This document shows, in pieces, positions 6,133 through 35,427 of a stretch of 64,000 nucleotides of DNA (the stretch's first letter is position 1; each line of letters starts with the position of its first letter). Source of the stretch: Thermoanaerobaculia bacterium (GTDB lineage Bacteria; Acidobacteriota; Thermoanaerobaculia; Multivoradales; JAHEKO01); the NCBI GenBank assembly GCA_046756565.1, contig JBHHWO010000002.1:1141-65140 (forward strand). Direction: 5' to 3'. Below the pieces are notes generated by a model. That model worked only from the letters and a program-made list of their open reading frames with translations, ran no database searches and had not been told where the DNA came from. A program made the position numbers and the translations under genes.

Positions 6133-6147
6133 TGGCACGAGGATTGC
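6133..6147 (+). promoter_or_regulatory. Sigma-54 (-24/-12) promoter TGGCAC-GAGGA-TTGC
   Basis: Read directly: tcTGGCACgaggaTTGCgg. Exact GG-N10-GC spacing, about 55-70 nt upstream of the first start candidates (6205/6220) of the 8-gene operon. Confidence 0.6.
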
Positions 6148-6204
6148 GGAAAGGCTGTGCGTCTGCTTGATTTACGATATTAACTATCGATAATATCCCC
6201 GTTC

Positions 6205-7950
6205 TTGGAGATCGGTCGGTTGTCGAGACCTGCAAGACAGGAAAGAGGTCGGTTGTTGGATACCCTCGGGTGCCAGGAGCTTTGTTGCGTCCTGGTGCTG
6301 GGAGTGGCGGTGGCCACTCTGGCGGGCTGTGAGCGTCCCGAGAGCGAGAGCGTTGCGGTTGGAGTCCTGGCCCTGGCCAACCTTCCGCCGCTGCCGCCCG
6401 TTGGCAGTGAAGGCGTCTTCGCCGACGTGACCCTGGCTGCCGGGATCACCGCTGAGCATCATCTGCCCGGTGATGACTTCGTCAACATCGTCGACTCGCT
6501 GGGTTCGGGGGCGGCGTTCGCCGATCTCGACGGTGACGACTGGCTCGACCTGATCGTGGTCGGAGGCCCGAGCCTGCCGGGTGAGGCCGACTGGCCGCCA
6601 GATCACAGCGGCGTCCGTGTGTTTCGCAATCTGCGCGACGGCCGGTTCGCGGATGTGACCACCGACTCGGGCATCGCCGCGAATGAGACCGCCATCGCGG
6701 TCGCCGTTGCGGACATCGACGGGGACGGAGATCGCGACGTCTATCTCGTAGACCGTGGTCCGAATCGGCTCTACCGCAACCGCGGAGACGCCACCTTCGA
6801 GATAGCCACCGACGAGGCCGGTCTGGGGCATCCGGGATTCGGAGTCAGTGCGGTTTTCTTCGATATGGACGGCGACTACGATCTCGATCTCTATCTGGGC
6901 AACTACCTGGAGTTTGACGAGAGGCAGAGCGCATTCTTCGCGCCCGACGGATTTCCCGGCCCGCTCAGCTATGAGGCGCAACCCGATGTGCTCTACGAGA
7001 ATCTCGGGAACGGCCGGTTCGTGGACGTATCGGAACCGGCCGGCATAGCGGATCTTCGCGGCCGCACGATGAGCGTAGCGGCCCTCGACTTCGATAACGA
7101 CACCGACACCGATCTGTTCGTTGCCAGCGACGCGACCGAGAACTATCTGCTGCTCAACGACGGTAGTGGCAGATTCGACGAGGCGGGCTTCGAGGCTGGC
7201 GTCGCGATGGGCGAGAACGGGGAGCAAACCGGCGCCATGGCGGTGGCGGTGGGCGACGTGGACGGAGACGGCCAGCTCGATTTGGCCGTCTCGGACACCG
7301 CCTACGGTGCCCTCTATCGCAGAGTCGGAGACGCGCTGTTTGCCGACGACGTGATGCTTTCAGGCTTGGCTCCGCTGTGTGGTCAGTACGTGAGTTGGGG
7401 CCAGAACCTCCTCGACTATGACAATGACGGCGACCTCGACCTATTTGTCGTCAACGGTGATCTGCATCACGTCGTGGGTTGGGAGGACATGCTGCTGCGC
7501 AACGACGGCGGAGCCCGGTTTCGCGATGCTTCTCTGGAGGGCGGCTTCTACTTCGAAGGTCGCGAGGTGGGCCGCAGCTCGATCGTGGGCGACTACGACA
7601 ACGATGGTGATCTCGACCTGTTTGTTACCGCCGTCAACGGTCGCCACTTTCTGCTCAGGAACGACTCGCCGCCTGGGCCCTCGTGGATCAGCGTGGATCT
7701 GTCCGGCGATCGTGTGCGGGACCCGTTCGGTGCTCGAATCGAGATCCAGGCCGGTGATCGAGCCTGGGCTTCCGAATACCGGTTCAATTCGGCCTACCTC
7801 GGCCAGAGCGACTCGAGGGTCCACTTTGGTCTCGGCGAAGGTGTCGATGTCGTCGACCGGCTGAGGGTGATCTGGCCGGACGGTACGGAGGTCGAGCTCA
7901 CCCGTGTCGAGACCGGGCGCACGCATCGCATCGAGCGAGGAGCCGCCTAG
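6205..7950 (+). CDS. CRTAC1-family protein (FG-GAP/VCBS repeats + ASPIC/UnbV C-terminal domain), lipoprotein
   Basis: Lipobox VATLAGC. Repeated DxDxDGDxD FG-GAP/VCBS calcium loops. C-terminal GARIEIQAGDRAWASEYRFNSAYLGQSDSRVHFGLG is UnbV_ASPIC-like. Start uncertain (TTG 6205 or TTG 6220 after GGAGA). Confidence 0.85.
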   Translation: MEIGRLSRPARQERGRLLDTLGCQELCCVLVLGVAVATLAGCERPESESVAVGVLALANLPPLPPVGSEGVFADVTLAAGITAEHHLPGDDFVNIVDSLGSGAAFADLDGDDWLDLIVVGGPSLPGEADWPPDHSGVRVFRNLRDGRFADVTTDSGIAANETAIAVAVADIDGDGDRDVYLVDRGPNRLYRNRGDATFEIATDEAGLGHPGFGVSAVFFDMDGDYDLDLYLGNYLEFDERQSAFFAPDGFPGPLSYEAQPDVLYENLGNGRFVDVSEPAGIADLRGRTMSVAALDFDNDTDTDLFVASDATENYLLLNDGSGRFDEAGFEAGVAMGENGEQTGAMAVAVGDVDGDGQLDLAVSDTAYGALYRRVGDALFADDVMLSGLAPLCGQYVSWGQNLLDYDNDGDLDLFVVNGDLHHVVGWEDMLLRNDGGARFRDASLEGGFYFEGREVGRSSIVGDYDNDGDLDLFVTAVNGRHFLLRNDSPPGPSWISVDLSGDRVRDPFGARIEIQAGDRAWASEYRFNSAYLGQSDSRVHFGLGEGVDVVDRLRVIWPDGTEVELTRVETGRTHRIERGAA

Positions 7951-7952
7951 CC

Positions 7953-9425
7953 GTGCGTGCTCGAACTCGAGAGTTGCTCGTTTCGGGTTGCGCCCTGCTC
8001 GGGCTGCTCACCGTTTTCGGTATTGGCTGCGTCGAGCAACCGGTGTCGGGAGAGCTGCCGGAGGCTCTCGCGGTGGTCGTGACAGAGCTACCGGCCGGCG
8101 CCTCGCCCGAGGCTTTGAACTCGGATCCAGCTCCGGACTCGCGCTACCCTGAAGGAAGCCGGATCGCACTGATAGTCGAAGGACAGCCGGGAACCGGCCG
8201 CATTCTCTCAGGAGGGTTCGTTGCCGCCGGCGCGCCGGACGTTTCCTCCTCGGGCGACGCGGTGCTATTCACGGCGCGGCGCTCGGCGGCGGACCCGTGG
8301 ACGATCTATCGCAGTGATCTCCAGCGCCGCAGCCGCCCTCAAGCGATCACCCAACTGGACACGGATTGCACGGATCCGGCCTTCTTGGCCGGTGGCCGGG
8401 CCGTGTTCAGTTGCCTTGCACCGGTTCCCGGAAGAGAGCAGGAAGGAGACAAGACCTGGGCGCTCCATACGGCTCGGCTGGACGGATCGCACTTCGAGCG
8501 GATCACCTACGGGCTACTTGCCGCCTCCGGGCCCACGCAGCTTCCGGACGGGAGAGTCCTCTTCTCCATGTGGCAAGAAGCTGGAGCGGGCCGCTCGCAA
8601 AGTTCGACCGCGCTATTCACGGTCAATGCGGACGGGACCCTTCTCCAGTCGTTCTCCGGTCATCATGGAGGGCCGGTTCTCAAACAACGCCCGCGCTTGG
8701 CTGACCAGGGCCGCGTCGTGTTTCTCGGCGCAGAACCGCCAGCCTACGAGCCGTTGTTGCTCGGAGTCGAAATGGCGCGCCCCCAGAGTCCGATGGAATC
8801 GTATGACCCTCCTGTGACTCCGCTGAGCGCCGAGCCTCTCGGTGGTGGAGAAATGCTGCTCGTCGGAAGGGACGAGCGTGTTGGGGCGCCCGGGAGCTCA
8901 GGGCTGTACCGATGGCGGCCAGGTGATTCGCCGATTGCGATTCGTGGACACGAGAAGTGGGACGTTGTCGAGGCCGTCCCTCGTCGACCGGCTCCCGAGC
9001 CTAAGGACCGACCGTCGGCGGTGGTCCGCACTCGCCTCACAGGAATCTTGCTCTGCTACGACGCGCAGCGATCCGACGGCGTCGTCGGGCCTTCCGACTC
9101 CAGTTCGCCGGCGCGTCGAGTGGTTCTGGAAACCCTGAATGGCGGGGCCCGTTCGTCGGCGATGGTATTGGGTGTGGACAACCTCGACGATGACGGCTCC
9201 TTTCACCTCGAAGTGCCTGCCGATCGTCCTCTACGAGTGCGCACTCTCGACGAGGCCGGCGCTGAGGTAGCGACCTCGGGTTGGTTCTGGCTGCGCCCGG
9301 GAGAGGTTCGGTCCTGCTTCGGTTGCCATGAAAGCCGCGAGGTGGCTCCGGTCAACCGGCCGATTGCGGCTCTCGCGCACGGCCCCTCACGGCTCGGCGT
9401 TCTCGGGGAGGCCGGCTCGCGATGA
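7953..9425 (+). CDS. Secreted propeller-like protein with C-terminal single CxxCH module (HzsA-middle-domain-like, from memory)
   Basis: GTG 2 nt after the upstream stop. Signal/lipoprotein-like LLGLLTVFGIGC. C-terminus GSFHLEVPADRPLRVRTLDEAGAEVATSGWFWLRPGEVRSCFGCHESREVAPVN. Confidence 0.65.
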   Translation: MRARTRELLVSGCALLGLLTVFGIGCVEQPVSGELPEALAVVVTELPAGASPEALNSDPAPDSRYPEGSRIALIVEGQPGTGRILSGGFVAAGAPDVSSSGDAVLFTARRSAADPWTIYRSDLQRRSRPQAITQLDTDCTDPAFLAGGRAVFSCLAPVPGREQEGDKTWALHTARLDGSHFERITYGLLAASGPTQLPDGRVLFSMWQEAGAGRSQSSTALFTVNADGTLLQSFSGHHGGPVLKQRPRLADQGRVVFLGAEPPAYEPLLLGVEMARPQSPMESYDPPVTPLSAEPLGGGEMLLVGRDERVGAPGSSGLYRWRPGDSPIAIRGHEKWDVVEAVPRRPAPEPKDRPSAVVRTRLTGILLCYDAQRSDGVVGPSDSSSPARRVVLETLNGGARSSAMVLGVDNLDDDGSFHLEVPADRPLRVRTLDEAGAEVATSGWFWLRPGEVRSCFGCHESREVAPVNRPIAALAHGPSRLGVLGEAGSR

Positions 9426-11395
9426 ACCGTCTCGGCGACGCCAGGAGCGCCGTCCGTCTCTACGCGTCGGTCGGGATCTCGCTGGTCGTGCTCGCGTCCT
9501 TCGGTGGACTCGGAATCCTGTCGCTGTATGGCGCTCACTACCGTCAGGTGACGGGAAGAGACGAACGGCCGGAGGTGGGGTGCTTCTACTGTCACCGGCG
9601 GGTCCAAGAGCCGAGTCGCCGTGGCGACCCGGGCGAGCCTGTGAGGTATCCGTCGCCCGCAGGGATCGCCGTTTCGGCCGATGGAGCGACACTCTGGGTC
9701 GCGGCCGAGGGTACCGATCGACTGCTCGAAATAGATCTCGAAAGCCGGACAGTTACTCGCGCCATCGTCATTCCAGGCGGCCCCTTTGGAGTAGCTCGGT
9801 CTGCTGGGGGCGATCGGCTGGCCGTCACGGCTCGCGCCGCTGACCGGGTTGCGATCGTCGATACCACGGAGTTTCGGGTACTCCGGTGGGTGGCGGCTGG
9901 AAGAGAGCCCTTGGGAGTCGAAGTGGCCGCCGGCGGGAGCGAGGTCTTCGTGGCCAACGGCGGTTCCAACGACGTGCTCCTGGCCTCGGTGACGTCTGAG
10001 ACCGAGCGCCACCGTCTGGGAGCGGGAATGGAGCCGTACGCGATCGATCTGGCCGCCGAAACGGGCCTTCTGGCGGTCGCCAACCGGCGCGTACGGCCTC
10101 GGCCCGAGCCGGCTCTGCCGGAGTCGGAGCTGACCGTGATCGATACGGTCTCAGGGCGAGTGCAAGCCCGGCATGCTCTTCGTAGCGCTCATCTCGCCGA
10201 GGGAGTGGCGATCTCGGCCGATGGGTCCTTTGTCCTGGTGCCGGTGGTCAGAGCCCGGAACTACCTACCCACCACTCAGGTGGCGCGGGGAGGACTGATG
10301 AATAGTGCTCTAGCCTTCGTCGAGACCCACTCCGGAGGCCGGGTTGTCCAATTCCCACTCGACGAAGTGAACGCCTACTACGCCGATCCGGCCGGAGTCG
10401 CTTTGAGCTCCGATAACCGACGGGCGTACGTCGCTCACGCAGGAGCCAGTGTGGTGTCGGTGGTCGACCTTTCGGTTTTGAGAAAGATGGTCTCGAGCTT
10501 GGACGCTGCGGCGTTGGACGAGCTCGGCGACGACCTCGGCGCGGCGGCCGGCTATGTGCTGGCGAGGATTCCGACTTCCCACGGTCCGAGCGCGCTTACG
10601 CTGTCGGCCGACGGCCGCAGGCTCTTCGTAGCCGAGCGTCTCGCCGACACGATCGCCGTCATCGATACCGACGAGCTGGAGGTGATCGGGCGCATCGACC
10701 TGGGCGGGCCGGGAGAGCTGACCGCGGTACGGCGTGGCGAGCGAGTGTTTCACGACGCTTCGGCGAGCTTTCAGGGGCAGTTTTCATGCCGCTCCTGCCA
10801 TCCCGACGGGCACACTGACGGCCTCAACTGGGATTTCGAGATCGACGGCGTCGGACGCAATCGGCTGGACACCCGGTCGCTGCGTGGCATTCGCGATACC
10901 GCGCCGTTCAAGTGGAACGGCAAGAATCCCGACCTGGCCACGCAGTGTGGTCCTCGCTTCGCGCGGGTGTTGACGCGTTCCGAGCCCTTCAGCCCGCAGC
11001 GACTCGAGGACCTCGTGACCTATATCGAGTCGCTTCGGCTGTCGGCCAAGGCCGGCCCCGATGCTCGGGCGCCGGCCATTGCCCGCGGTCGGCAGCTCTT
11101 TTTTCGGAGCACCACGATCTCTGGAGAGACGATTCCCGTTCGCCAGCGTTGTGACACCTGTCATCGCCCACCGCTGTTTACCGATCGGTTGATGACCGAC
11201 GTGGGCACCGGCGGGGTGTTCGACACGCCTCACCTGCTCGATATCGGGCTGTCACCGCCCTATCTGCACGATGGTCGCGCACAGACGCTCGAGGAGATCT
11301 GGACCGTCCACAGCCCGGAGGACACGCATGGAGCAACGAACGACATGAGCAAGGCGGAGCTCAACGACCTCGTGGTCTTCTTGAAGAGTCTGTAG
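9422..11395 (+). CDS. YVTN-type beta-propeller fused to di-haem cytochrome c peroxidase (CCP/MauG-like), plus an extra N-terminal CxxCH
   Basis: ATGA overlap with the upstream gene. N-terminal TM helix, then CFYCH. Repeated propeller blades (LWVAAEGTDRLLEIDL, LAVTARAADRVAIVD, LFVAERLADTIAVIDT). CCP block FSCRSCHPDGHTDGLNWDF...RCDTCHRPPLFTD...PPYLHDGRAQTLEE. Confidence 0.85.
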   Translation: MNRLGDARSAVRLYASVGISLVVLASFGGLGILSLYGAHYRQVTGRDERPEVGCFYCHRRVQEPSRRGDPGEPVRYPSPAGIAVSADGATLWVAAEGTDRLLEIDLESRTVTRAIVIPGGPFGVARSAGGDRLAVTARAADRVAIVDTTEFRVLRWVAAGREPLGVEVAAGGSEVFVANGGSNDVLLASVTSETERHRLGAGMEPYAIDLAAETGLLAVANRRVRPRPEPALPESELTVIDTVSGRVQARHALRSAHLAEGVAISADGSFVLVPVVRARNYLPTTQVARGGLMNSALAFVETHSGGRVVQFPLDEVNAYYADPAGVALSSDNRRAYVAHAGASVVSVVDLSVLRKMVSSLDAAALDELGDDLGAAAGYVLARIPTSHGPSALTLSADGRRLFVAERLADTIAVIDTDELEVIGRIDLGGPGELTAVRRGERVFHDASASFQGQFSCRSCHPDGHTDGLNWDFEIDGVGRNRLDTRSLRGIRDTAPFKWNGKNPDLATQCGPRFARVLTRSEPFSPQRLEDLVTYIESLRLSAKAGPDARAPAIARGRQLFFRSTTISGETIPVRQRCDTCHRPPLFTDRLMTDVGTGGVFDTPHLLDIGLSPPYLHDGRAQTLEEIWTVHSPEDTHGATNDMSKAELNDLVVFLKSL

Positions 11396-11397
11396 TC

Positions 11398-12522
11398 ATG
11401 CGCGAATTCCCTCTCAGCTCAACTCTGCTGTTCGTTTCGATGGCGATTGCGATACCGGTTGCTGCCGAAGCAGCCAGCGACCCTTTCTTCAGCCGCTGGG
11501 AGACGTTCGGAGAGGCCGACGGGCTGCCGTCCGAAAAAGTGACCGCCGTGGCAATCGACGGGAATCGGATCTGGGTGGGTACCGATGCCGGACTGGCCCT
11601 GCTGGAGAACGGGCGAATCGAGGTGACCGGCGTCGAAGACGGCCTGCCGTTCCCGGTAGTTTCGGCTCTGGCCGTCGATCGGACGACCGGTGATCTGTGG
11701 ATCGGCACGCAAGGCGGCCTCGCCCGGCTCAGCGCCGGCCGGATAGATCGCTTTACCCAACTCGACAGCGGGCTTGCGAACGACGTCGTCTACGGCGTTG
11801 CTGCCCGGGACGGAGTGGTGTGGGTGGCGACCGCCGCGGGCCTCAACAGCTATTCCGCGGCCACCGACAGCTGGGAGATCTTCGATGTTTCGAACACGCT
11901 CATGCACGAGCCCTGGTGCTATGCGGTGACCTTCGGCGGCGAAGACGTCTACGTAGCGGTCTGGGGCGGCGGAGTCATCGTGCGCGAGCACGACACGGGT
12001 CGATTCCGTGAGCACCGTGATCCGGATGGAGAAATGGAGATCGATCTGTTCCCTGATGACGGACTAGTGCACGACGTGACGTCATCGATTGCCTGGAAAG
12101 ACGGAGTGATGTGGGCCGGAACATACTTCGGCTTGAGCCGATACGAAGGTCGGCGATGGAAATCCTTCAGCCGGCACGACAGCGGCCTCGCGAGTGACTT
12201 CATCAACTTCGTCCAGACCGGCGACGATGAAGTCTGGATCGCGACCGACCGCGGTCTCAGCCGATTCGACTCGATCGACTGGCACACCTGGACACGAAGA
12301 GATGCCGGCGCCTTTGAGCTCGAGGTCACGAAAGCGGACGGGACGGAAGAAACAGTCACAGTGGCGGGAGGTCCCGCGAGTAACTACATCCTCGGTCTGG
12401 CCGTGGATGGCAGGGACATATGGCTGGCCACGGCGGCCGGCTTGACCCATGGGGTCGGGCACCGGGCTGAACGCCGGAGTGCTGCCCCGCAATCTGAACA
12501 CAAGACAGGAGCACCACAATGA
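11398..12522 (+). CDS. Secreted two-component-regulator-propeller (Reg_prop) repeat protein, no kinase domain
   Basis: Signal peptide LLFVSMAIAIPVAAEA. Repeats of the type DGLPSEKVTAVAIDGNRIWVGTDAGLALL and DLWIGTQGGLARL. Confidence 0.7.
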   Translation: MREFPLSSTLLFVSMAIAIPVAAEAASDPFFSRWETFGEADGLPSEKVTAVAIDGNRIWVGTDAGLALLENGRIEVTGVEDGLPFPVVSALAVDRTTGDLWIGTQGGLARLSAGRIDRFTQLDSGLANDVVYGVAARDGVVWVATAAGLNSYSAATDSWEIFDVSNTLMHEPWCYAVTFGGEDVYVAVWGGGVIVREHDTGRFREHRDPDGEMEIDLFPDDGLVHDVTSSIAWKDGVMWAGTYFGLSRYEGRRWKSFSRHDSGLASDFINFVQTGDDEVWIATDRGLSRFDSIDWHTWTRRDAGAFELEVTKADGTEETVTVAGGPASNYILGLAVDGRDIWLATAAGLTHGVGHRAERRSAAPQSEHKTGAPQ

Positions 12523-13124
12523 GTCAACTGACCCTGGAGCGAGAACGGATTGACACCGCGGCCGGCACTTCCCTGAGCATCGATGCCATGGCCGAGCTCG
12601 ATGCGATGGGGCTCGGCCCGTCACACGGTCTCGAGTCGGCGAACAGGGCGGGAATTGATCCGGTGGCGGAGCGCCGGCTCTATCCCAAGAGGGCGATTAC
12701 CTCGCTCGAGGTTCTGAACGAGGCCTACGACTACGCTCTGCCCTCTTCGTTCAGTCGCGGCATGCGCGTGGAGTTGGGTGAGGCTGCGATCCTCTATCTG
12801 TCGGGTACGGCCAGCATCGACGAAGACGGCCGGACGCTCTATAGCGGCGACTTCGAGGCCCAGTGTCTTCGGACGTTTCGCAACCTGACATCGCTATTGG
12901 CCTCCGAGTCCGCGAGCTGGCACGATGTCGTGCGCACGACCTGCTATCTCAGGGATATCGAGCGCGACTACGACACCTTCAATCGAGTGCGCACCCTGTT
13001 CATGACGGCGCTCGGGCTGGATCCTGTGCCGGCGAGCACCGGAATCCAAGCGCGGCTGTGCCGGTCGGATCTGCTGGTCGAGATCGAGGCCATCGCCATC
13101 GTGCCGCGCGACGCAGGCGACTGA
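12519..13124 (+). CDS. RidA/YjgF/L-PSP-fold protein (possibly chorismatase-like)
   Basis: ATGA overlap upstream. LYLSGTASIDEDG...FEAQCLRTFRNLTSLL...VVRTTCYLRDI...PASTGIQARLCRSDLLVEIEAIAIV matches the RidA-family core. An extra ~80-aa N-terminal extension is present. Confidence 0.7.
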   Translation: MSQLTLERERIDTAAGTSLSIDAMAELDAMGLGPSHGLESANRAGIDPVAERRLYPKRAITSLEVLNEAYDYALPSSFSRGMRVELGEAAILYLSGTASIDEDGRTLYSGDFEAQCLRTFRNLTSLLASESASWHDVVRTTCYLRDIERDYDTFNRVRTLFMTALGLDPVPASTGIQARLCRSDLLVEIEAIAIVPRDAGD

Positions 13125-14431
13125 TGAGCGGACGGTCGTATCTGCTCCTGGTTCTGGCGCTGCTGATGGCCTGGCCGCCGGTGCTGGCGGCGGCCGGCGA
13201 GAATGTCTCACCAGAGCCGGCGGCGGACCGGTCGACGCCGGAGAAAGACGCGCCCGGCCGGGCCGGATACGGGAAAACGCCCGAGCGACTGAAGCCGTAC
13301 AGCAGGAGCGCCGAGCCCTACCGCAGCTTCTATCTCGAGCCACTGCGTTTCTTCGGCCCGGGAAGGGACGTTGCGGAACCGGTGGGGTCGGAATCCGTTC
13401 GCATCGGTCTGATCGCCCCGCTCGAAGAGGGAATCGATGCCGGCTTGGGACGCAACCTTCGCGATGGAGTCGCGCTGGCGGTTTCGGAGGCCAACGCCTC
13501 CGGTGGCTATCGTGGCCTCCCCTTCGAGGTCATCGAGCGCAACGATCAGGCGATCTGGGGCAGCTCCAGCAATACTCTCGTCGACCTCGCGTACCTGGAG
13601 CGAGTCTGGGCGGTGATCGGCTCGGTCGATTCCAACAGCACTCACGTGGCCCTGCGTGCGGCGCTCAAGGCCGAAGTCATGATCGTGAATGTCGGCAGCA
13701 CCGATCCGACCGTGACCGAGACCGGAATCCCCTGGCTGGTGCGCTGTACACCGGACGACCGCCAGACCGGGTATCTGCTGGCTTTGCATCTCTTCGAGGA
13801 TCTCGGCTTCTCACGGGTGGCCGTCCTCCGTTCCACGGATCGCTATGGCCGTTTCGGCGTCGCCGAGTTCCGGGACGCGGCGCGACGCCTCGGTCGGCCG
13901 TTGCCGCTGGAGATTCTTTTCGAGTCGGTCCAGCGCGATTTCGCTGCCGAGCTCGAGCGCATCGAGGCGGCGGACATCGACGCCGTCGTCCTTTGGACGA
14001 AGGCGGAGCCGGCGGCTCTGATCGTCCGTCAGATGCGCGCTCGGGGGATGCGCCAGCTGGTCGCGGGCCCTGATCGCTTGGCGTCGCCGGGCTTTCTCGA
14101 GCTGGCGGGAGAGTCGGCGGAAGGCGTGATCGCGACCCGCTGGATCGATCCGGAGCGGCAAGACGCCGCGTGGATCGATTTCGAGCGGCGCTTCTCGGAG
14201 CGCTTCACCCGCCCGCCCGACGCCTTTTCGGCGTATGGCTACGACGCCGCCAACTTGGTGATCGATGCGGTCCGCGCGGCCGGTCTCAACAGGCTCCGTA
14301 TTCGCGATCGACTGATGGGCATCAGGTCCGTGACCGGCGTGGCCGGCACGATCGTCTTCGACGAGACCTCGAATAACATCGTCCAGCCGTACCTGGTCAG
14401 TGTCAAAGGAGGCCGGTTTGCGCCTCTCTAA
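13124..14431 (+). CDS. LivK-like (Peripla_BP_6) periplasmic substrate-binding protein, orphan (no permease/ATPase nearby)
   Basis: The track ORF starts at 12863, but an internal ATG at 13124 overlaps the upstream stop and gives signal peptide MSGRSYLLLVLALLMAWPPVLAAAG. Body VRIGLIAPLEEG...AVSEANASGGYRGLPFEVIERND...WAVIGSVDS is typical of the branched-chain amino-acid/amide binding family. Confidence 0.8.
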   Translation: MSGRSYLLLVLALLMAWPPVLAAAGENVSPEPAADRSTPEKDAPGRAGYGKTPERLKPYSRSAEPYRSFYLEPLRFFGPGRDVAEPVGSESVRIGLIAPLEEGIDAGLGRNLRDGVALAVSEANASGGYRGLPFEVIERNDQAIWGSSSNTLVDLAYLERVWAVIGSVDSNSTHVALRAALKAEVMIVNVGSTDPTVTETGIPWLVRCTPDDRQTGYLLALHLFEDLGFSRVAVLRSTDRYGRFGVAEFRDAARRLGRPLPLEILFESVQRDFAAELERIEAADIDAVVLWTKAEPAALIVRQMRARGMRQLVAGPDRLASPGFLELAGESAEGVIATRWIDPERQDAAWIDFERRFSERFTRPPDAFSAYGYDAANLVIDAVRAAGLNRLRIRDRLMGIRSVTGVAGTIVFDETSNNIVQPYLVSVKGGRFAPL

Positions 14432-19067: not shown

Positions 19068-19076
19068 GCCGCCAGG

Positions 19077-26339: not shown

Positions 26340-28155
26340 GGCAGCGAACACAGGTAGTGAATCCGATTTCCCACGCGATCCGGCCGTTGTGGCAGGTCGC
26401 GCAGAACTCACCCCGCCGCATGGCGGTCATGGTGATCGGGTTGGCTCCGGCTTTCATTTCGAACACACTCGGGTGGCACGAGGCGCACTTGAATCGGATG
26501 CGATGAAACCAGTGAGGAAACGTCGCCGGCGGAGTGTCCTTGCCGGCCAGCAGAAACAGCTCGTCGACCCCCGCTAGCTCGTCAGGACTCAAGCCTTCGA
26601 TGTTGTTCAAGGCAATCTGGGCTTCGGCAGCCAGCTCTGCCTCCGAGAGTTCCCTACGCTCGAAGTGGATGTCACCTTTGACCGCGAACGGTGACGGCTC
26701 CTCCTCGGCGAACGACAGTATGAATGCCGCTAACTGCCAAGCTTGTTCCGGTTGGAGAAACTGACCGAAGCCAGGCATAGGCGTGCCCGGGAAGCCGGTC
26801 ATGACGACTCGGTACATATCCCTGATACCGGAGCCGGACTTCGGCGGCCTCCCAGCCGCGAAGTTGTACGGCAAGATCGGATCGCCCCACTCGTCTTTCA
26901 GCGTTTCAGCCGAGGCGCCATCGGCCCGGCCCGTGTCGCCGTGGCACGCTTGGCAGCCGGCCTGTCTGTAGAAGGCTCGGCCCTGCTCGACCAATTCCGC
27001 CGTGACCTCGGGGGTCTCTGGGATGGTGATCGGTTCGTCCGGCTCTTCATTGGCGAACCGTGGAGAGAAGGACTTGACGAAGTGCGTCAATGCCCAGCGA
27101 TCCTCGGTTGACAGGGCGATCCAGCTGGGCATCGACGAGCCCGGGACACCACGAGTGATCGTCCGAAAGATGTCGTAGTCCGTCGGCAGGGAAGCTCCGA
27201 TTGTCGAGCGGAACTTGTACTTGCCGGCCGTGAAGTCGCGCGGCTTGGGATCCACCCACGGCGCCATCCGGCCCTGGCCGTCACCGGCGTCTCCATGACA
27301 GAGAGCGCAGTAGCGCTGGTATGCCTGCTGGCCCCGTTTGATCAGCTCGTCAGAAGCAACCAGTGGGCTGTCCAAAGCGCGAGCCAGCTCGGCATCGACA
27401 GTCTCGTCGCTCGCCGGCATGAGACTCGAGTGACAACGCGCACAGCTCAACTCCGGATCGTAGGACACTCGCCCGTGGCACTTGCCGCAGCCCTCCCCGG
27501 CGAGAATCCGGTCCATCGGCTTGCGCAGCGTCGCGGCGCCGGGATGGCAGCTCGAGCAAGTCAGCCAGAGCGTATGCGAGGCATGTGGGAAGTCCACCGT
27601 GAAGAACGGATCTGACTCGGGCACCAGCTCGAGGTCGAGATCGAGAACCGGACGATCGGGGAATCCGGCCGCCACCGTGGCAAACGTCTCCAGCCGAAAA
27701 GGCGGCTCGAAGGGAGTGGCCTGTGGTTCGGGAAGGGCTCGCGGTTCGATCAATCCATCTTTGATTGCCTGAACCCAGTCGACACCGCCGGCGTAGTCGG
27801 TGGGAAGCTGGGTCAGAGCCTCCTGCCACGTCGTGACATTCTCGAGCGGCGCCTTGACGGCGAGCTCGAGTCCCTCGATTACGGCCTGATCGAGCGGTAC
27901 GACAGGCGGCGAGTTTCGAGCTCGCCGAGCCCGCGCGGAATCGTCGCCGGTCGCGGGCGTCGGAGGCGGCGGGACGTTGGGACCAGGCTCGAGGAGGGAC
28001 TCTTCGACCCTCTCTTCGGTTGGCTCGGGGAGCCCATCGAAGAAAACCGAAAGCACTTTATGCCTGCTCGTCGTGGAGCAGGCATAGACCGCGGTCAGGC
28101 AAACGAGCGACGCCAAAACCGGTGCAGTTCGGAGTCGCCCTGGTGGTGCTCTCAC
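26326..28155 (-). CDS. Octahaem lipoprotein cytochrome c: c7-type trihaem + two class-I-like monohaem domains + c7-type trihaem
   Basis: Lipobox-like LTAVYAC. CSSCH, CGKCH, CARCH (first c7-like, FPHASHTLWLTCSSCHP). CALCHGD and CQACHGD (class I-like with downstream Met). CASCH, CATCH, CVRCH (second c7-like, FPHWFHRIRFKCASCHP). Confidence 0.85.
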   Translation of the reverse strand: MRAPPGRLRTAPVLASLVCLTAVYACSTTSRHKVLSVFFDGLPEPTEERVEESLLEPGPNVPPPPTPATGDDSARARRARNSPPVVPLDQAVIEGLELAVKAPLENVTTWQEALTQLPTDYAGGVDWVQAIKDGLIEPRALPEPQATPFEPPFRLETFATVAAGFPDRPVLDLDLELVPESDPFFTVDFPHASHTLWLTCSSCHPGAATLRKPMDRILAGEGCGKCHGRVSYDPELSCARCHSSLMPASDETVDAELARALDSPLVASDELIKRGQQAYQRYCALCHGDAGDGQGRMAPWVDPKPRDFTAGKYKFRSTIGASLPTDYDIFRTITRGVPGSSMPSWIALSTEDRWALTHFVKSFSPRFANEEPDEPITIPETPEVTAELVEQGRAFYRQAGCQACHGDTGRADGASAETLKDEWGDPILPYNFAAGRPPKSGSGIRDMYRVVMTGFPGTPMPGFGQFLQPEQAWQLAAFILSFAEEEPSPFAVKGDIHFERRELSEAELAAEAQIALNNIEGLSPDELAGVDELFLLAGKDTPPATFPHWFHRIRFKCASCHPSVFEMKAGANPITMTAMRRGEFCATCHNGRIAWEIGFTTCVRCHVAN

Positions 28156-28191: not shown

Positions 28192-28899
28192 CTATTCTCC
28201 AGTGAACTCGAAGCTGACTTGGGTTTCTCCGCTGTCGGCCACGGTGATCTCCCGCGTCTGCTCACCCAACTTCTCGTGCCAAAGCGAGAGCTGGTGATTC
28301 CCGGCGGGAACATCGGCCAAGGTAAAGCTTCCTGTTTCGTCGGTGACCGCCGTATAGCGACTATCGGTCACCAGAATCCACGCGGTCATCCATCCGTGCA
28401 CGTCGCACTTGACTTTGATCACCTCGGACTCGTCGAAGGTCAACTGCAGAGTCTGCACGAAGCCCGGCTGGGCCAGGTTCATCGGCGGGTTCTCGTCTGA
28501 GTAGGTGTGCACGTTGTGAAGGATGCCGTCGCTGTTGATCACCGCCATCTCCTCGCCGGGACGCGCGATCACCACCCGAGGCTCAAACGTGCAGCCATTC
28601 TGGTCGAGCTTCGGCTGCTCCGAGCTCTCGGTTGCACCCCGGGCGCTCGAGACCTGGACCACCGCCCACTGCAGCCCCTGGTCTTCACTGACGACGAGCT
28701 CGGGATCGACCTGCTCGGTGCCACAGACCGAAGTGTCCTGTGCCACCGCAACAGGTTCTGCGGCGGGCACGGTCCCGTTGAACTTGACCGTGCCTACAAC
28801 GGTACCAGCCGACAGGGTTGTCGACAGCGTGGACGTCAGAATCAGGATGGCCAGGACGGCGAGAGCTGATCTTGTCGAGTGGATGGGTCTTACTTGCAT
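28192..28899 (-). CDS. Secreted cupredoxin-like protein with C-terminal CarboxypepD_reg-like beta-sandwich
   Basis: Signal peptide. Type-1 Cu-like ligand pattern INSDGILHNVH ... KCDVHGWM (H...C-x2-H-x2-M, amicyanin-like spacing). C-terminal TDETGSFTLADVPAGNHQLSLWHEKLG. RBS AAGGAG 8 nt upstream. Confidence 0.7.
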   Translation of the reverse strand: MQVRPIHSTRSALAVLAILILTSTLSTTLSAGTVVGTVKFNGTVPAAEPVAVAQDTSVCGTEQVDPELVVSEDQGLQWAVVQVSSARGATESSEQPKLDQNGCTFEPRVVIARPGEEMAVINSDGILHNVHTYSDENPPMNLAQPGFVQTLQLTFDESEVIKVKCDVHGWMTAWILVTDSRYTAVTDETGSFTLADVPAGNHQLSLWHEKLGEQTREITVADSGETQVSFEFTGE

Positions 28900-29012
28900 G
28901 AGAGTTTTCTCCTTCTTTGAGTTCAGGAAGAGGCAAAACCGGCGCTCCGGTCTTGCCTCCTCTGGGGGTCGATCTGAGTTTCAGTAACGCGGTTGAGGGA
29001 CAGCTGTCCGCC

Positions 29013-29822
29013 CTAGCCGCGGTCGTGGCACTTCTGGCAGATGTACGACGCTCCAGGACCGGTTCCCGAGCCACCGAGGGTTCCGCGCAGCAGCGGCTGG
29101 TCGTGAACCAGGCCACGTTCGTTGTGGACACCGTGGCACGAGGTGCATTCGATTCCTGTGCTGCCCGCCACGGCACCGGCGGAGATGTTGCCGGCGTTGT
29201 CGTTGAAGAGGCGGATACCGAGAGAGGTCGGGTCCGGATTGAAGTCGGCTGTGAACGTATTGGCGCCGGTAGTCACGCCGTTGTAAGTGTTGGTCGTCGT
29301 CTGCTGGAAGGGATAGGGGAACGCGACCGGGTGGTTGCCGCTCATATTGCCGGTGGTCGGATCGGCGATGTTGAAGACGTCGACGTCGTGTGTGGTTGGA
29401 TCCAAGGCCGCGGCCCCTGTCCATGCCTGCTTGTTGAACCAGGCGATGTCACCGATCGCCACCGAACCGTCGTGACAGCTCAGACAGAGCTTGGTCGGGC
29501 CCTTCCAGGTGGTGTCGATAGTGGGGTAGGGAGTGCCGCCGGCCGTCACCGCACCCGCGTCCCAGGAGTAGGTGTTAGACGAAAGTGTGTGGTTCCACAA
29601 GAGGCTCTGCTGCTGAGCCCTGTGGGGTGTATGGCAGAAAGTGCAGCCGCCGGTGGTCGCGGTCGGGTTGCCCGTGTTGCCCGCTGCGATTCCGGAGAAA
29701 TCGTGCGGGCTGTTCGTGAAGCCGGATCCTGGTGTGTAGCTCTGCGCCCAGGCCGCTCCCGAGAAGAGCAGCAGCACGGTGACGAGCGTCGTGAGTGCCA
29801 ACCTGGAGTTTGTTCCTCTCAT
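29013..29822 (-). CDS. Secreted tetrahaem cytochrome c (paired-CxxCH type)
   Basis: Internal ATG at 29822 after GGGAGGA. Signal peptide LALTTLVTVLLLFSGAAWAQ. SPHDFS...CTFCHTPH, CLSCHDG, CTSCHGVH, CQKCHDRG. Confidence 0.85.
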   Translation of the reverse strand: MRGTNSRLALTTLVTVLLLFSGAAWAQSYTPGSGFTNSPHDFSGIAAGNTGNPTATTGGCTFCHTPHRAQQQSLLWNHTLSSNTYSWDAGAVTAGGTPYPTIDTTWKGPTKLCLSCHDGSVAIGDIAWFNKQAWTGAAALDPTTHDVDVFNIADPTTGNMSGNHPVAFPYPFQQTTTNTYNGVTTGANTFTADFNPDPTSLGIRLFNDNAGNISAGAVAGSTGIECTSCHGVHNERGLVHDQPLLRGTLGGSGTGPGASYICQKCHDRG

Positions 29823-29859: not shown

Positions 29860-31029
29860 CTATCGAGATTGAGACGCTCCCTCGTCGTTCGACGGAGAGT
29901 CCTTCTGGTCCGAAGAGATATAGCTGTCTTCAGCGGTCGTATTGACGAGCTCGTAGCGAGCGACGCGGTAGTTGAGGTAGTCGGCGATGTAGATGCGGTT
30001 CTGCCGGTCGATCGCAATTCCGGTCGGGTTCTTCAGAAGTCCGGGGTGAACTCCGCGCCCCCCGAAGAAAAGCAGCACCTGTCCCTTTTGATTGAAGATC
30101 TGAACGTTTGACCATCCGGAATCGACGACATATACGTTGCCGAAGCCGTCGATAGCGACCCCCTTGGGCTTGTCGAACATGCCGAATGCCGTTCCCCGCT
30201 CACCGAAGTACTTGAGGTAGTTGCCGTCCACGTCGAAGACGTCGACTCGGGACTTCAGGGTGCTGGTGACATAGAGGTTGCCGTCGGAATCTACGGCGAC
30301 GTAAGTCGGGAAGAACAGGCACCCGTCACAAATCCCCTTCTTTCCCACAGTGCGCAGCAGTCGGCCCTCGAGATCGAATACCTTTACCGAGTGATCCTCG
30401 GATGCCTTGGTCGCCGGATCCGCGACGTAGAGGAGGCCGCGCGTGCGATCGAGCTCGATGTCGGCGGGCCGCACTAGCGAAGGGTGCTTGATGATCCGGA
30501 TGGGTTCGTGCTGGCGGTCGAGCACCACGATCCGTCGATTGCCCTGTTCGACGACATAGAGATTCTCTTGCTCGTCCAGGGCCAGTCCAAAAGGACGGCT
30601 GAACGGCCGTGTGTCGCCGATCAAGGAGACCCGCTTGGTATCGAAGTCGAAAAGGAAGACCACGGCTTGACCGAAGTCGGAGACATAGAACCGCTTGCCG
30701 TCGTCAGACACCGCGACATCCATGGGCTGGTAAACGTGGGATTTCGGCGGCGTGGTTCCGGCGAAAAACTCCATGAACAGCTCACGCCGGGTGGGCTTGC
30801 GCCCGAGATGCTTCTCGTCGGCATACGACTGCAGAAACCTGATCCTGGGCTCCTGGGGAGGCTCGGGCCAAACCAGCTCGATCAACTCCGGTTCAACCAC
30901 CTTGGCCTTTCTGTTCTTGTTCCTCTTCTTGCCCTTCGCATCCGCCGTTTCGACACCTGCAATCAAAGTCGCGACGGCAACCAGCAAGACGAGCCAACGC
31001 CGGCCGAGATAGGTAGATTCCTTGATCAT
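29860..31029 (-). CDS. NHL-repeat six-bladed beta-propeller protein, secreted
   Basis: Signal peptide LVLLVAVATLIAGVETADA. Blades FYVSDFGQAVVFLFD, LYVVEQGNRRIVVLD, LYVADPATKASEDHSVKVFD, LYVTSTLKSRVDVFD, VYVVDSGWSNVQIFN, IYIADYLNYRVARYE. Confidence 0.85.
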   Translation of the reverse strand: MIKESTYLGRRWLVLLVAVATLIAGVETADAKGKKRNKNRKAKVVEPELIELVWPEPPQEPRIRFLQSYADEKHLGRKPTRRELFMEFFAGTTPPKSHVYQPMDVAVSDDGKRFYVSDFGQAVVFLFDFDTKRVSLIGDTRPFSRPFGLALDEQENLYVVEQGNRRIVVLDRQHEPIRIIKHPSLVRPADIELDRTRGLLYVADPATKASEDHSVKVFDLEGRLLRTVGKKGICDGCLFFPTYVAVDSDGNLYVTSTLKSRVDVFDVDGNYLKYFGERGTAFGMFDKPKGVAIDGFGNVYVVDSGWSNVQIFNQKGQVLLFFGGRGVHPGLLKNPTGIAIDRQNRIYIADYLNYRVARYELVNTTAEDSYISSDQKDSPSNDEGASQSR

Positions 31030-31079: not shown

Positions 31080-31094
31080 GCAAAGCGAGTGCCA
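31080..31094 (-). promoter_or_regulatory. Sigma-54 (-24/-12) promoter TGGCAC-TCGCT-TTGC(T)
   Basis: Plus strand reads gcaaagcgagtgcca. Reverse complement is TGGCACTCGCTTTGC with exact spacing, about 50 nt upstream of the NHL gene start (31029). Confidence 0.65.
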
Positions 31095-31237: not shown

Positions 31238-32684
<1,447 letters not shown>

Positions 32685-32692
<8 letters not shown>

Positions 32693-34481
32693 CCAAGCGA
32701 TCCTTGTGCTCCGGTAATCGAATCTCGAAACTCGCTCCACCGGAGTCGTTGTTGGTTGCGCGAATCTCTCCACCAAAAGACTCGACAATGCGCTTCGACA
32801 CGGCGAGCCCGAGCCCAGTGCCTCGGCCGATCTCTTTGGTGGTAAAGAACGGCTCGAACAGCCGCTCCGAGTCGCCTTTCGGCAAGCCGGTGCCAGTGTC
32901 TGTGATTCTGAGAATCAGGTCCGCCTCTGTCCCATTGTGCTGGCAAGTCGTCTGAATCTTCAGACTTCCGCCTTTTGGCATGGCATCGATCGCGTTATTG
33001 ATCAGATTCAGGATCAGCTGGAGAGCGTCGTTCGGGTCGCCGACAGAGACGCACGGCCGCGCGTCGAAGTCGGTCTCGAGGTTGACCGAGGCATGCTTCA
33101 TTCTCGGCTGCGTGAGTAGAATGGCCTCGTCGAGAATCAGCTTCAAATCCACCGGCAGCCGGATTCCTTCGGGCTTGCGCGAAAAGCTCAAAAGGCTGCG
33201 CACCGACTGATCGATGCGGCGGCATTGGCGTTCCATCATCTCGAGGTCGTCTCGAAGCTCCCGCGGAACGTCCCGGTCGTTGCTGAATTCCCGTCGGTGA
33301 GTAATCGTCGTCAGCAGGATTCCCACCGGATTGTTGATCTGGTGCGCGATTCCTGCGGCGAGTTGTCCGACGACGGCCATCTTGTCGGCCTGGCGGAGCT
33401 GCTCTTCGACTTCCTTGCTCTCAGTGACATCCAGGATGAGCTGGAGAAAGTGGTCGGCTTCACCGACCGCGTCGTTCGTGCTTTCAGGAGTCGTGATTAT
33501 CTGAAAGGTCCGGCGTTCGCCGTCCAACCCAGTGGCGACGTGTTCGCAATGTACGGGACCGGTAGATTTCCCGGCGCTTGCCTCGAACGGGCAGTCGACG
33601 CAGGTCACGCAGTCGCGGCAGAAACGTTCTGGAGCACTGGCGCCGACAAGACCATCTTCGCCTCCGAACCAGCACTCGGCCATCTCGTTGGCCCAGAGAA
33701 TGCGACCTTGCGAATCGGCCAGGATCAGACCGGCTCCGACCGCGTTTACGATTCGCTCGAGCTTGCTTTTCTCGACAACCAGCTCGTCGGCTGAGCGCCG
33801 CAGCTCGTTCTCTAGCCTGCGCTGGGTTCGGTTGATCCGGCGGACCACGCCGACCATCGCGACGTATAGAAGCGCTCCAAGGCCGAGTGAGGCGCTCCAG
33901 ACGAGCACAGCGGCCTGTCGAATCTGCTTGAAGAGCTTCCTGGGATAGCGATAGATCTCGACGACCCCGACCACTGAACCTTGCTCGAAGATCGGGATGT
34001 ACGACTCCATGATCTTCTCGAACCTGCCTCGCTCGAAGAGGTGCTCCGTGCGTTCCGGAGTCTCGATGACGCTCTCGACCCTCCCTGAAAGAGAACGCGC
34101 GAGATGCATGTTGTCGGGAAAACGAACGCCGAGCAGCTCCGGCTCGTCCGACCAGATGATTCGGCCCTCCAGGTTGTACACCTTGATCCTGAAGACCTCG
34201 TCCAGTGCAAGTGCCTTCAAGAAGCGGTTTCCCAGTCGCGGATCGCGGATCGCGTCCTTCACCTGAAAGAACCCGGTCCCGAACTCGGTGGCGATCACGT
34301 GGCGAACGAACGCGGCGGTCTGCCCTTGATCGTTGCTCTCCACTGCACGATGGATCGTTTTCTCGAGCAGCCAACCGAACAAGACCGCGCAGCCGAGTAC
34401 AGACACGAGAGCCGTAACCGCGAAGCGCTGGGCGTGATCCAATCGCCGATAGCGAGCGATGAGAGAAGGCCGGTCAGTCAA
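32685..34481 (-). CDS. Sensor histidine kinase (2 TM, extracytoplasmic domain, Cys-rich PAS, HisKA, HATPase_c)
   Basis: TM helices near aa 22-40 and 192-212. PAS-like KLERIVNAVGAGLILADSQGRILWAN with FCRDCVTCVDCP...HCEH. H-box AAGIAHQINNP. N/G boxes LINNAIDAM, TDTGTGL, GTGLGL. Confidence 0.9.
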
Positions 34482-34602
34482 GACGAATCCATTCCGTGTG
34501 GAAAGGCACGGCGCGTCGAACGCGCTAGGTCTTGGAAGATCTCGGGCAAGTCGAGACGCCCAGCAAAGAGTAGAACGGACAGACCCGATTACCTGTCTCT
34601 TC

Positions 34603-35376
34603 CTAGCCGTCCGGAGACTGCGGGAGGGCGCGTTCGAACTCTACAGCCGTTTCGGTGTTCGGTAAAACGGTCACCTCCTTCGACGCCTCTCCCAGGGCCT
34701 CGTGCCAGAACTCCAAGATGTACGATCCTGCCGGTACGTCATCGAGGCGGAACGATCCGTCGTGACCCGTTACCGCGTAATAGGGATGTCTCTGAATGAT
34801 GGCGTAGGCTTCCATCCAGCCGTGTATGTCGCAGATGAGCCTCACGGCCTTGGGCTCGGAAATCTGACGGGCGAAATTCTCGACCAGCATCTGTTCGACG
34901 AAACGCGGTTGGCCGACGTTGAAGACCGAGTCCTTAGAGTGCGATCGCACAATGTGGAGAACGCGGTCAGTGTTCGTGATATGAAGATCTTCACCTTCCG
35001 GAATCAAGAGAATATGGGGGTCGAACCGGCAGTCGGCCTGGCGTAGGTGGTACTCCTTTTCGGGCCATGGCCTGCCGCTCGGGATCTCGCGCAGGTTGAT
35101 GACCGCGTTCTGAACGCCGCCGCTCTCGTCGACCAGCAGCGCGCGCGAGAATCGATCTTCGGTACCGCAGGTCTCGGGATCGGTGCCAACCAACAGTTTC
35201 GCGGGCGGACCAAGCGTCCCGACGAAGCGAGCTGTGCCGACAATACTGCCGCCGTCGGCTACCTCCAGTTCCTCGTAGCCGCCAGCCCCGGCAAGTGCCG
35301 CCGGCAAACCGGTCAGAATGACGGCAAGATCGACCATCACACGCGCGAAACACGGCGTTCTTGTCTTACAGCTCAC
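34603..35376 (-). CDS. Cupredoxin-like + CarboxypepD_reg-like protein, paralogue of 28192-28899
   Basis: ITNTDRVLHIVRSH ... ICDIHGWM ... TGHDGSFRLDDVPAGSYILEFWHEALG is collinear with the 28192-28899 product. Start uncertain (35376 or ATG 35337). Confidence 0.7.
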   Translation of the reverse strand: MSCKTRTPCFARVMVDLAVILTGLPAALAGAGGYEELEVADGGSIVGTARFVGTLGPPAKLLVGTDPETCGTEDRFSRALLVDESGGVQNAVINLREIPSGRPWPEKEYHLRQADCRFDPHILLIPEGEDLHITNTDRVLHIVRSHSKDSVFNVGQPRFVEQMLVENFARQISEPKAVRLICDIHGWMEAYAIIQRHPYYAVTGHDGSFRLDDVPAGSYILEFWHEALGEASKEVTVLPNTETAVEFERALPQSPDG

Positions 35377-35414
35377 GCAACCCTTAATCTTAGAAACACA
35401 GTCGGTTCTCGTCT

Positions 35415-35427
35415 GTGACTAAGTCAC
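35415..35427. promoter_or_regulatory. Perfect palindrome GTGAC-TAA-GTCAC in a divergent intergenic region (candidate Crp/Fnr-family operator)
   Basis: Read directly: tcTGTGACTAAGTCACcg. It lies between the cupredoxin-2 gene and the Crp/Fnr gene. The half-site TGTGA resembles CRP-type sites, but the spacer is one nt short. Confidence 0.3.

Follow-up and report, generated by a model that had tools for sequence, protein, structure and literature searches.

We analysed a stretch of 64,000 nucleotides (the window) from a contig of a metagenome-assembled genome (MAG) of Thermoanaerobaculia (Acidobacteriota) and conclude that seven genes on its minus strand, running from 31029 down to 19077 and lettered K to Q below, probably encode a sigma-54-regulated outer-membrane porin–cytochrome electron conduit of the Uet (undecahaem electron transfer) type. 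Porin–cytochrome conduits give Gram-negative bacteria their route of electron exchange with minerals, electrodes and partner cells, and to our knowledge experiments cover only the Mtr and Pcc types among these. The Uet-type design has already been described; new here are a variant form of it and the wide distribution of its sub-modules. The direct observations behind this reading are export signals, haem and copper ligand sets, a barrel fold, synteny across phyla, the pairing and fusion of NHL propellers with cytochromes, and recurring −24/−12 elements. The core genes and their control elements are:

31238–34481, minus strand: two-component regulator, a receiver–AAA+–HTH_8 sigma-54 activator and a PAS histidine kinase (Pfam)
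31080–31094, minus strand: sigma-54-type −24/−12 element TGGCACTCGCTTTGC, exact consensus, ~50 nt upstream of the first core gene, K
29860–31029, minus strand: K, exported NHL six-bladed beta-propeller, 389 aa (Pfam NHL, E = 9.8e-24; signal peptide)
29013–29822, minus strand: L, tetrahaem Paired_CXXCH cytochrome, 269 aa from an internal start (4 CxxCH; Paired_CXXCH_1, TIGR01905)
28192–28899, minus strand: M, type-1-copper cupredoxin fused to a CarboxypepD_reg-like beta-sandwich (ligands and profile; CarboxypepD_reg, E = 1.3e-7)
26326–28155, minus strand: N, octahaem protein and probable lipoprotein, with domains in the order c7 trihaem, two class-I monohaem, c7 trihaem (8 CxxCH; TIGR04257 nanowire_3heme twice, Cytochrome_CBB3 twice)
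23655–26339, minus strand: O, predicted outer-membrane beta-barrel of ~30 strands with an NTF2-like C-terminal domain (AlphaFold2; Cds6_C, E = 1.3e-15)
21475–23658, minus strand: P, exported NHL propeller with C-terminal thrombospondin-type-3-like Asp/Cys repeats (Pfam NHL, DUF5128)
19077–21470, minus strand: Q, 14-haem Paired_CXXCH cytochrome (13 CxxCH and 1 CxxxCH)

Gene trains and content of the module

The seven genes open a minus-strand train of ten open reading frames (ORFs), K to T, that runs from 31029 down to 16329 and faces a plus-strand train of eight, A to H (6205–16300; ORF listing and translation). Junctions in the plus train are 2-nt gaps, ATGA or TGATG overlaps and one overlap of 14 or 32 nt, depending on the choice of start. 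Those in the minus train include overlaps of 14 and 4 nt and gaps of 4, 9, 36 and 37 nt. No terminator-like sites were found in the larger intergenic gaps or in the 28 nt that separate the converging trains. N-terminal export signals occur on every minus-train product but the ferredoxin (R), with a signal peptide or lipobox on each of the core products K to Q, and neither train encodes a polytopic membrane protein. Pfam matches on the train proteins comprise two FG-GAP/UnbV_ASPIC proteins, two NHL propellers, YncE, Reg_prop and a 2x[4Fe-4S] ferredoxin, with seven propeller or FG-GAP proteins in the two trains. NCBIfam gave no curated name above cut-off for any of the core proteins. Protein O is identical to an NCBI protein of the MAG.

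An initial annotation of this region, made from the sequence alone, had described two convergent operons meeting within 28 nt, which the ORF listing confirms. Its porin–cytochrome make-up of the minus train also holds (a large barrel, multihaem proteins and export signals), as does its cytoplasmic 2x[4Fe-4S] ferredoxin, which matches Pfam Fer4_7/Fer4 and has no export signal. The tight gene coupling it reported applies to most junctions but not to two minus-train gaps of 113 nt (28900–29012) and up to 181 nt (18494–18674). Likewise, its total of 30 haem motifs is correct, but these are 1 + 3 + 13 + 8 + 4 = 29 CxxCH and one CxxxCH, the latter in Q, which had been credited with 14 CxxCH.

The barrel protein O

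Structure prediction with AlphaFold2, built on 27 homologues, gave O a barrel of ~30 antiparallel strands over residues 43–662 at a pLDDT of ~90, in agreement with the membrane barrel that had been proposed for 23655–26339. A small beta domain is inserted in the barrel at around residues 395–450, and the barrel is followed by a disordered linker and the C-terminal NTF2-like Cds6_C domain. The linker comprises ~100 residues and is rich in Pro, Glu and Ser (region of the C-terminus, window 23655–24200, minus strand). Cds6_C is the sole Pfam match on O, and its presence on the barrel protein is restricted to the nearest relatives (P0001–P0004, P0006); no Pfam model for the barrel was present in those members of the O family listed with precomputed domains.

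The O family is large. An exhaustive profile search returned 2,904 clusters at 50% identity (1,446 at E <= 1e-30), mostly of 650–700 aa, and a barrel search from a gammaproteobacterial member retrieved homologues named from Thiodiazotropha and tubeworm symbiont genomes. The 14-nt overlap between the N and O genes recurs in metagenome contig L004.

Multihaem cytochromes and their NHL partners

The tetrahaem gene L most likely starts at 29822 rather than 30017, and its product is conserved at 80–81% identity in L004 and L010. Homologues of the octahaem protein N retain the lipobox Cys, hence N is probably a lipoprotein. Q has 766 or more homologues, with a haem-motif count that is nearly invariant among relatives, and no homologue in the plasmid collection. 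Its similarity to DmsE/MtrA (TIGR03508, 64 bits against a cut-off of 192) and to MtrC/MtrF domains lies below threshold. Relatives of Q with 12 haems occur outside the window, in loci L002, L047 and L085.

An NHL gene adjoins the Q gene in 49 of 64 loci, the others being mostly contig edges, fusions, or Verrucomicrobiota with an NHL gene a few kb downstream. Fused NHL–14-haem proteins of ~1,300 aa (P0043, P0045 and P0047; also in loci L013 and L026) provide a Rosetta-stone argument for a joint function of the two proteins. Furthermore, loci of Geothrix, Verrucomicrobiota and Gammaproteobacteria also have an NHL gene followed by a 4-haem gene, as in K–L. The NHL–14-haem pair of Arenicellales and of another gammaproteobacterial MAG has Reg_prop propellers close by, which come in pairs and alternate with small c-type cytochromes (L015:15535–22000, L016, L012); in the Arenicellales locus L007/L015, nirS and Crp/Fnr regulators are nearby as well.

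The gene neighbourhoods of Q allow for a periplasmic or outer-membrane enzyme system acting on a soluble substrate (N-oxides or hydroxylamine, sulfur species, or peroxide and oxygen stress), with the barrel as a channel for substrate or product and the multihaem proteins catalytic or electron-storing, in place of a conduit to partners that are solid or outside the cell. The Arenicellales pair sits among nirS, Crp/Fnr regulator, hemerythrin and peroxiredoxin genes, the window locus has a Crp-family regulator at its flank, CCP and hzs-like genes lie in the neighbourhood, and most Q carriers have no barrel nearby. Nevertheless, we consider this reading unlikely, as Q, N and L match generic electron-transfer families only, with no enzyme family above threshold in Pfam or NCBIfam, and their domains (c7, c3-like, MtrC/MtrF-like and DmsE-like) are electron-transfer modules. 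A barrel of ~30 strands is also far above the size of a substrate porin and best fits sheaths of MtrB or LptD size.

The tail of P carries about ten Asp/Cys-rich thrombospondin-type-3-like repeats and has a weak match to the cell-cohesion protein MtsC. Such features could belong to a cell-surface or matrix structure for adhesion or cell–cell contact, with the NHL, thrombospondin-like and FG-GAP/CRTAC1 proteins as structural parts and the cytochromes secreted as part of the matrix or of something nanowire-like; the region is flanked by CRTAC1 proteins, and a role in adhesion or as scaffolds has been discussed for NHL proteins (10.1101/2022.05.06.490989). That the locus serves this purpose is very improbable in our judgement, since neither the CRTAC1 genes nor the repeats at the end of P belong to the conserved core, both being lineage-specific, and the conserved parts are redox proteins and a barrel.

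Cupredoxins and their probable link to bc-type complexes

The cupredoxin M has a paralogue, U, encoded beyond the regulator genes (34603–35376, minus strand). The two share 36% identity and the invariant copper ligands H128, C165, H168 and M171, and CxxHxxM is kept in 79 of 81 homologues of M. A family profile of 18 sequences, searched against PDB sequences, matched the NirK cupredoxin domain (E = 1.6e-7), blue copper protein, amicyanin and pseudoazurin over the whole length, with values ranging to 1e-4, which bears out the earlier naming of both as cupredoxin-like. The CarboxypepD_reg-type beta-sandwich forms the C-terminal half of M. A copy resembling U is also found near the core in L004 and L009.

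This cupredoxin–CarboxypepD_reg family occupies at least 511 metagenome loci, where it usually follows a ~900-aa octahaem cytochrome, a pair present in many of loci L088–L137. In the soil locus L126 (4806–10624) genes for Rieske, cytochrome b and the cytochrome b C-terminal part immediately precede the pair, a gene order that suggests that soil bacteria have a bc-type complex served by a blue-copper protein of its own. Rieske and cytochrome b genes also adjoin the cluster in the distant relative L002. It is a safe inference that the cupredoxin type of M works with cytochrome bc-type complexes elsewhere. We rejected N as an orthologue of the ~900-aa octahaem protein found beside Rieske/cytochrome b, as what the two share does not go beyond generic cytochrome c domains; the cupredoxin is the one link that holds. 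L126 encodes another cupredoxin of this family (13485–20272), which lies beside a YncE propeller, two di-haem CCP/MauG genes, a fused SoxY–SoxZ and a metallophosphoesterase; the YncE propeller and CCP are unfused counterparts of gene C of the plus train.

Sigma-54-type elements and regulators

The pattern TGGCAC-N5-TTGC has exactly two matches in the window against 0.12 expected, a number reached by 2 of 100 shuffles. Both lie in train leader regions in the correct orientation, at 31080–31094 (minus strand) and 6133–6147 (plus strand), hence each train is headed by a perfect element as first annotated. The claim of a single sigma-54 activator beside a kinase with a Cys-rich PAS region holds as well: the sole GAFTGA/Sigma54_activat protein of the window is encoded at 31238–32788, and the PAS region of the kinase (33550–33640, minus strand) contains a C-x2-C-x2-C-x2-C motif, FCRDCVTCVDCPF. 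The motif points to a metal or iron-sulfur sensor. It was not found in the kinases of related loci and was rejected as a feature that the sensors have in common.

Sigma-54-type elements recur 5' of the first module gene in four other lineages, exactly in L010 and L013 and with one mismatch in L004/L005 and L014. A sigma-54 activator is also located upstream of the core in L010, and a kinase with an activator in L014.

Conservation and distribution of the module

Synteny was assessed using tblastn and jackhmmer with all window proteins, on contigs with barrel homologues and on 77 genome loci found by the 14-haem alignment. The order NHL, 4-haem, cupredoxin, 8-haem, barrel, NHL, 14-haem is kept at 43–81% identity in metagenome contigs L004–L006 and the Polyangiaceae MAG L010. 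The seven-gene set is rearranged in L009, L014 (a Gemmatimonadota MAG) and L035, and a short second Thermoanaerobaculia contig, L008, has N–O–P–Q.

The remaining genes of the trains are not part of this pattern. In none of the 77 genome loci, which include the closest relatives (Q identity 78–86%), were homologues of plus-train genes A–C and E–H or of the tail genes S and T detected within 10 kb of the Q homologue. Reg_prop proteins resembling D are found near a Q homologue in four gammaproteobacterial loci only, and the ferredoxin R follows Q only in the close relative L008. The absence of the plus-train genes and of S and T from related loci indicates that the conserved unit is the seven genes, not the two trains; the synteny anticipated by the initial annotation is therefore found for the minus core but not for the plus train, S or T. 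With synteny across phyla and a barrel model both in hand, the two objections that it had raised in advance, no synteny and no barrel, fall away.

Pairs of NHL and 14-haem genes are present in at least 259 species-level genomes, including those of Gammaproteobacteria, Arenicellales, Burkholderiales, Myxococcota, Gemmatimonadota, Verrucomicrobiota and Acidobacteriota; Geothrix fermentans, G. paludis, G. terrae and G. alkalitolerans count among the carriers and are in culture. A related barrel–NHL–12-haem module occurs in Verrucomicrobiota, Gammaproteobacteria and metagenome contigs L166–L168 (many samples), often after NHL, tetrahaem and one or two c7 genes. Where it takes the form tetrahaem, c7, barrel, NHL, 12-haem (L166–L168, L085, L047), it belongs to a marine bacterium whose barrel protein appears in 128 contig-index blocks (24 contigs read).

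Comparison with known systems

The initial annotation held that this list of parts does not match any known system. On the contrary, it corresponds nearly part for part to the uet cluster (uetABCDEFGHIJ) of 'Candidatus Tenderia electrophaga' (ALP54622–ALP54629, ALP54908 and an unannotated undecahaem gene) and related orders, which has been proposed as an electron-uptake conduit (bioRxiv 10.1101/2022.05.06.490989) and is also reported from some Gallionella (PMC10734462) and Leptothrix (PMC13386937). The uet cluster encodes a tetrahaem protein UetA, a prolyl isomerase UetB, a 28-strand barrel UetC, c7 trihaem proteins UetD, UetE and UetG, a cupredoxin UetF, NHL proteins UetH and UetI, and an undecahaem protein UetJ (10.1101/2022.05.06.490989). 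In the window, UetA is paralleled by the tetrahaem L, the predicted barrel UetC (28 strands) by O (~30), the unusually large cupredoxin UetF by M, the NHL propellers UetH and UetI by K and P, the c7 trihaem units of UetD, UetE and UetG in part by the two c7 domains of N, and the 'doubled CXXCH' multihaem UetJ by Q (Paired_CXXCH_1).

The two systems differ in gene order and in the number of haem motifs in Q (14 versus 11–12 in UetJ). N fuses the c7 units with two class-I haem domains in one lipoprotein, whereas uet has three separate c7 proteins; separate c7 genes are found in the related loci L047 and L085. The window system also has the extra NTF2-like domain on O, sigma-54 two-component control and an Acidobacteriota host. 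No domains of a UetB-like peptidyl-prolyl isomerase or of ccsAB-nrfG-batABD were detected in the ORFs scanned across the window.

Multihaem cytochromes are also clustered with six-bladed NHL propellers in Desulfovibrio ferrophilus IS5 (DFE_0448–0451 and DFE_0461–0465, DFE_0461 being the 14-haem protein), where the propellers are proposed to stabilise an outer-membrane cytochrome complex (PMC5815863; PMC9769857; PMC8322314; FeGenie, PMC7005843). The window resembles these clusters in combining a 14-haem and other multihaem cytochromes with NHL propellers, but has both a porin and a cupredoxin, of which the former is not evident and the latter not reported in D. ferrophilus. Neither Tenderia nor D. 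ferrophilus was among the top 80 of a genome scan with the 14-haem alignment.

The likeness to MtrCAB, MtoAB and PioAB and to Geobacter Pcc/Ext lies in a gene for a large outer-membrane barrel next to genes for periplasmic or outer multihaem cytochromes. Their barrels have 26 strands as opposed to ~30 here, the cytochrome families are different, the window barrel has no MtrB_PioB Pfam match, and NHL propellers and a cupredoxin are present in the window but absent from these systems. The defining Mtr/Pio feature, an MtrB/PioB-family barrel with a DmsE/MtrA-family decahaem cytochrome, is lacking in O and Q. With the Cyc2–rusticyanin chain only the idea of a cupredoxin is shared; O has no CxxCH and is not a fused monohaem cytochrome–porin. 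Porin–scaffold–cytochrome 'EET1' and related clusters, one with a scaffold protein, have been described from peat Acidobacteriota and Verrucomicrobiota (bioRxiv 10.64898/2026.05.27.727921). These come from the same phyla and are conserved but sequence-divergent sets of porin and multihaem genes, matched here by description only; their hosts are Terriglobales and Bryobacterales, as opposed to Thermoanaerobaculia.

Proposed mechanism and points against it

In the conduit as we picture it, O would be the sheath across the outer membrane, and the octahaem lipoprotein N would form a haem chain through and past the barrel together with L and Q, rods of 4 and 14 haems. For each Paired_CXXCH cytochrome a separate NHL propeller may serve to assemble or hold it, K for L and P for Q. 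M, and probably also U, would act as a periplasmic electron shuttle to or from inner-membrane respiratory complexes encoded elsewhere, and expression would be driven by sigma-54 together with the adjacent kinase/activator pair. The physical assembly, the topology, the identity of the cytochrome that would enter the barrel and the direction of electron flow are features that we infer only. As to direction, the cupredoxin, the class-I haem domains and the precedent set by Uet incline us to electron uptake from an outside donor or to a reversible system.

Several points weigh against a Uet-type conduit. Uet itself is known only from genomics and transcriptomics and the window module only from genomics, and the likeness to Uet and D. 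ferrophilus is one of parts described in papers, not of compared sequences. Deletion of cytochromes of the D. ferrophilus clusters caused no defect in Fe(III) reduction (PMC9769857). No inner-membrane quinol oxidoreductase, Rieske/cytochrome b or other, is encoded in the whole window, as had been noted initially. A barrel gene of this family lies within 10 kb in 12 of the 64 Q loci, and most genomes with Q have the NHL–Q pair without one in that range, which implies that O is not strictly needed by Q. The top Foldseek match of O in the PDB is MtrB (6r2q_B, E = 1e-10), above LptD and TonB-dependent receptors, but at TM-scores of 0.35 and 0.46, which are low, hence the match shows a generic very large barrel rather than Mtr membership. 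The structure model of M, from an alignment of window sequences only, has a pLDDT of 35, and the octahaem protein of L126 is only 22% identical to N (E = 1e-3).

The plus-strand train and other neighbours

The ferredoxin, the protein of no family and the CRTAC1 protein at the tail of the minus train, and the whole plus train, are neighbours of the conduit genes and lie outside the conduit. These and the second cupredoxin are:

6133–6147, plus strand: second exact sigma-54-type element (exact consensus), heading the plus train and outside the conserved module
6205–12522, plus strand: head of the plus train, a CRTAC1-like lipoprotein (A), an HZS-alpha-like protein (B; HZS, hydrazine synthase), a fused HZS-beta/gamma-like protein (C) and Reg_prop (D) (Pfam and PDB matches)
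12519–16300, plus strand: tail of the plus train, RidA/L-PSP, two Peripla_BP_6 solute-binding proteins and DAHP synthase (Pfam)
16329–18493, minus strand: lineage-specific tail, S (exported, 161 aa, no family) and T (CRTAC1/ASPIC-UnbV FG-GAP protein) (Pfam)
18675–19067, minus strand: R, 2x[4Fe-4S] ferredoxin without export signal, lineage-specific tail gene (Pfam Fer4_7/Fer4)
34603–35376, minus strand: U, second cupredoxin–CarboxypepD_reg paralogue, same copper ligands as M

Two genes of the plus train resemble hydrazine synthase. Gene C (9422–11395, plus strand) matches HZS-beta (5c2v_B, E = 1.1e-35) over residues 12–349 of 352 and HZS-gamma (5c2v_C, E = 2.3e-23) over residues 37–314 of 314, with the haem gamma-I motif aligned; an additional N-terminal anchor and haem make it trihaem overall. 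For gene B (7953–9425, plus strand) the sole PDB match in phmmer was HZS-alpha (5c2v_A, E = 2e-7, in three short pieces), with Pfam HZS_alpha at E = 1.5e-16 and NCBIfam hydrazine_alpha at 48 bits against a cut-off of 800. B is 490 aa long with one CxxCH, and has no alpha C-terminal haem domain. The first list of propellers is thus correct for two NHL, Reg_prop and two CRTAC1 proteins, but its 'TolB-like' and 'YVTN' members are B and C, respectively. No hydrazine dehydrogenase or hao/hdh-like octahaem gene was detected in the window, and a search of the plasmid collection with C gave generic YncE/CCP matches only.

MAGs of Phycisphaerae UBA1845 have been reported to carry an hzsA-like gene immediately followed by a fused hzsBC-like gene, with the suggestion of a broader enzyme family (PMC10732223). 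The arrangement is the same as in B–C, an alpha-like gene directly 5' of a fused beta-propeller/di-haem gamma-like gene. Compared with hydrazine synthase, B is short with a single haem, C has the extra N-terminal anchor and haem, and the host is an acidobacterium. We treat the plus train as a separate sigma-54 unit headed by a putative hydrazine-synthase-like enzyme.

The initial annotation had instead joined both operons into one integrated, undescribed extracytoplasmic redox system. The trains do share the exact TGGCAC-N5-TTGC element and meet within 28 nt, CRTAC1 paralogues open one and close the other as originally described (A and T, 35% identity), and an M/U-family cupredoxin in L126 stands beside the YncE propeller and di-haem CCP that correspond to gene C. 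A single system is distinctly unlikely all the same, because homologues of A–C, E–H, S and T are missing near Q in the 77 loci, closest relatives included, half of the plus train is non-redox metabolism (Pfam found no redox domains in the tail at 12519–16300), and the minus-core parts list is already matched by Uet. Nor do the two promoters have any upstream sequence in common beyond the promoter itself; a shared activator site was rejected, with no common 14-nt word at <=2 mismatches.

Just outside the region, past a Crp-family regulator (35453–36169), is a gene for a strictosidine-synthase-like/SGL six-bladed propeller (36217–37296, minus strand). The window also encodes three Ser/Thr protein kinases (1593–4484, plus; 37293–39734, minus; 44254–47373, plus), of which one carries a fused FGE-sulfatase domain (formylglycine-generating-enzyme-like) and the other two carry fused TPR arrays.

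Implications

A bolder proposal would make K–Q a distinct, phylum-spanning class of conduit, with an NHL propeller for each Paired_CXXCH cytochrome, a blue-copper link to Rieske/cytochrome b, and, in this Thermoanaerobaculia genome, sigma-54 co-regulation with a hydrazine-synthase-like enzyme, by which extracellular electrons would be passed to or from N–N or N-oxide chemistry outside anammox bacteria. We regard this as a long shot. The B–C pair in itself widens the reported range of the hydrazine-synthase-like family past Planctomycetota.

The locus shows that the Uet-like design of a large barrel, NHL propellers, doubled-CXXCH cytochromes and a blue copper protein reaches beyond a few Gammaproteobacteria. 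Among the carriers of its sub-modules are Acidobacteriota, Verrucomicrobiota, Gemmatimonadota, Myxococcota, symbionts of marine hosts and Geothrix, an iron reducer that can be cultivated. For abundant uncultured lineages the K–Q module is hence a concrete candidate for electron exchange that can be put to the test, and Geothrix offers a tractable host for the NHL–cytochrome pairs.

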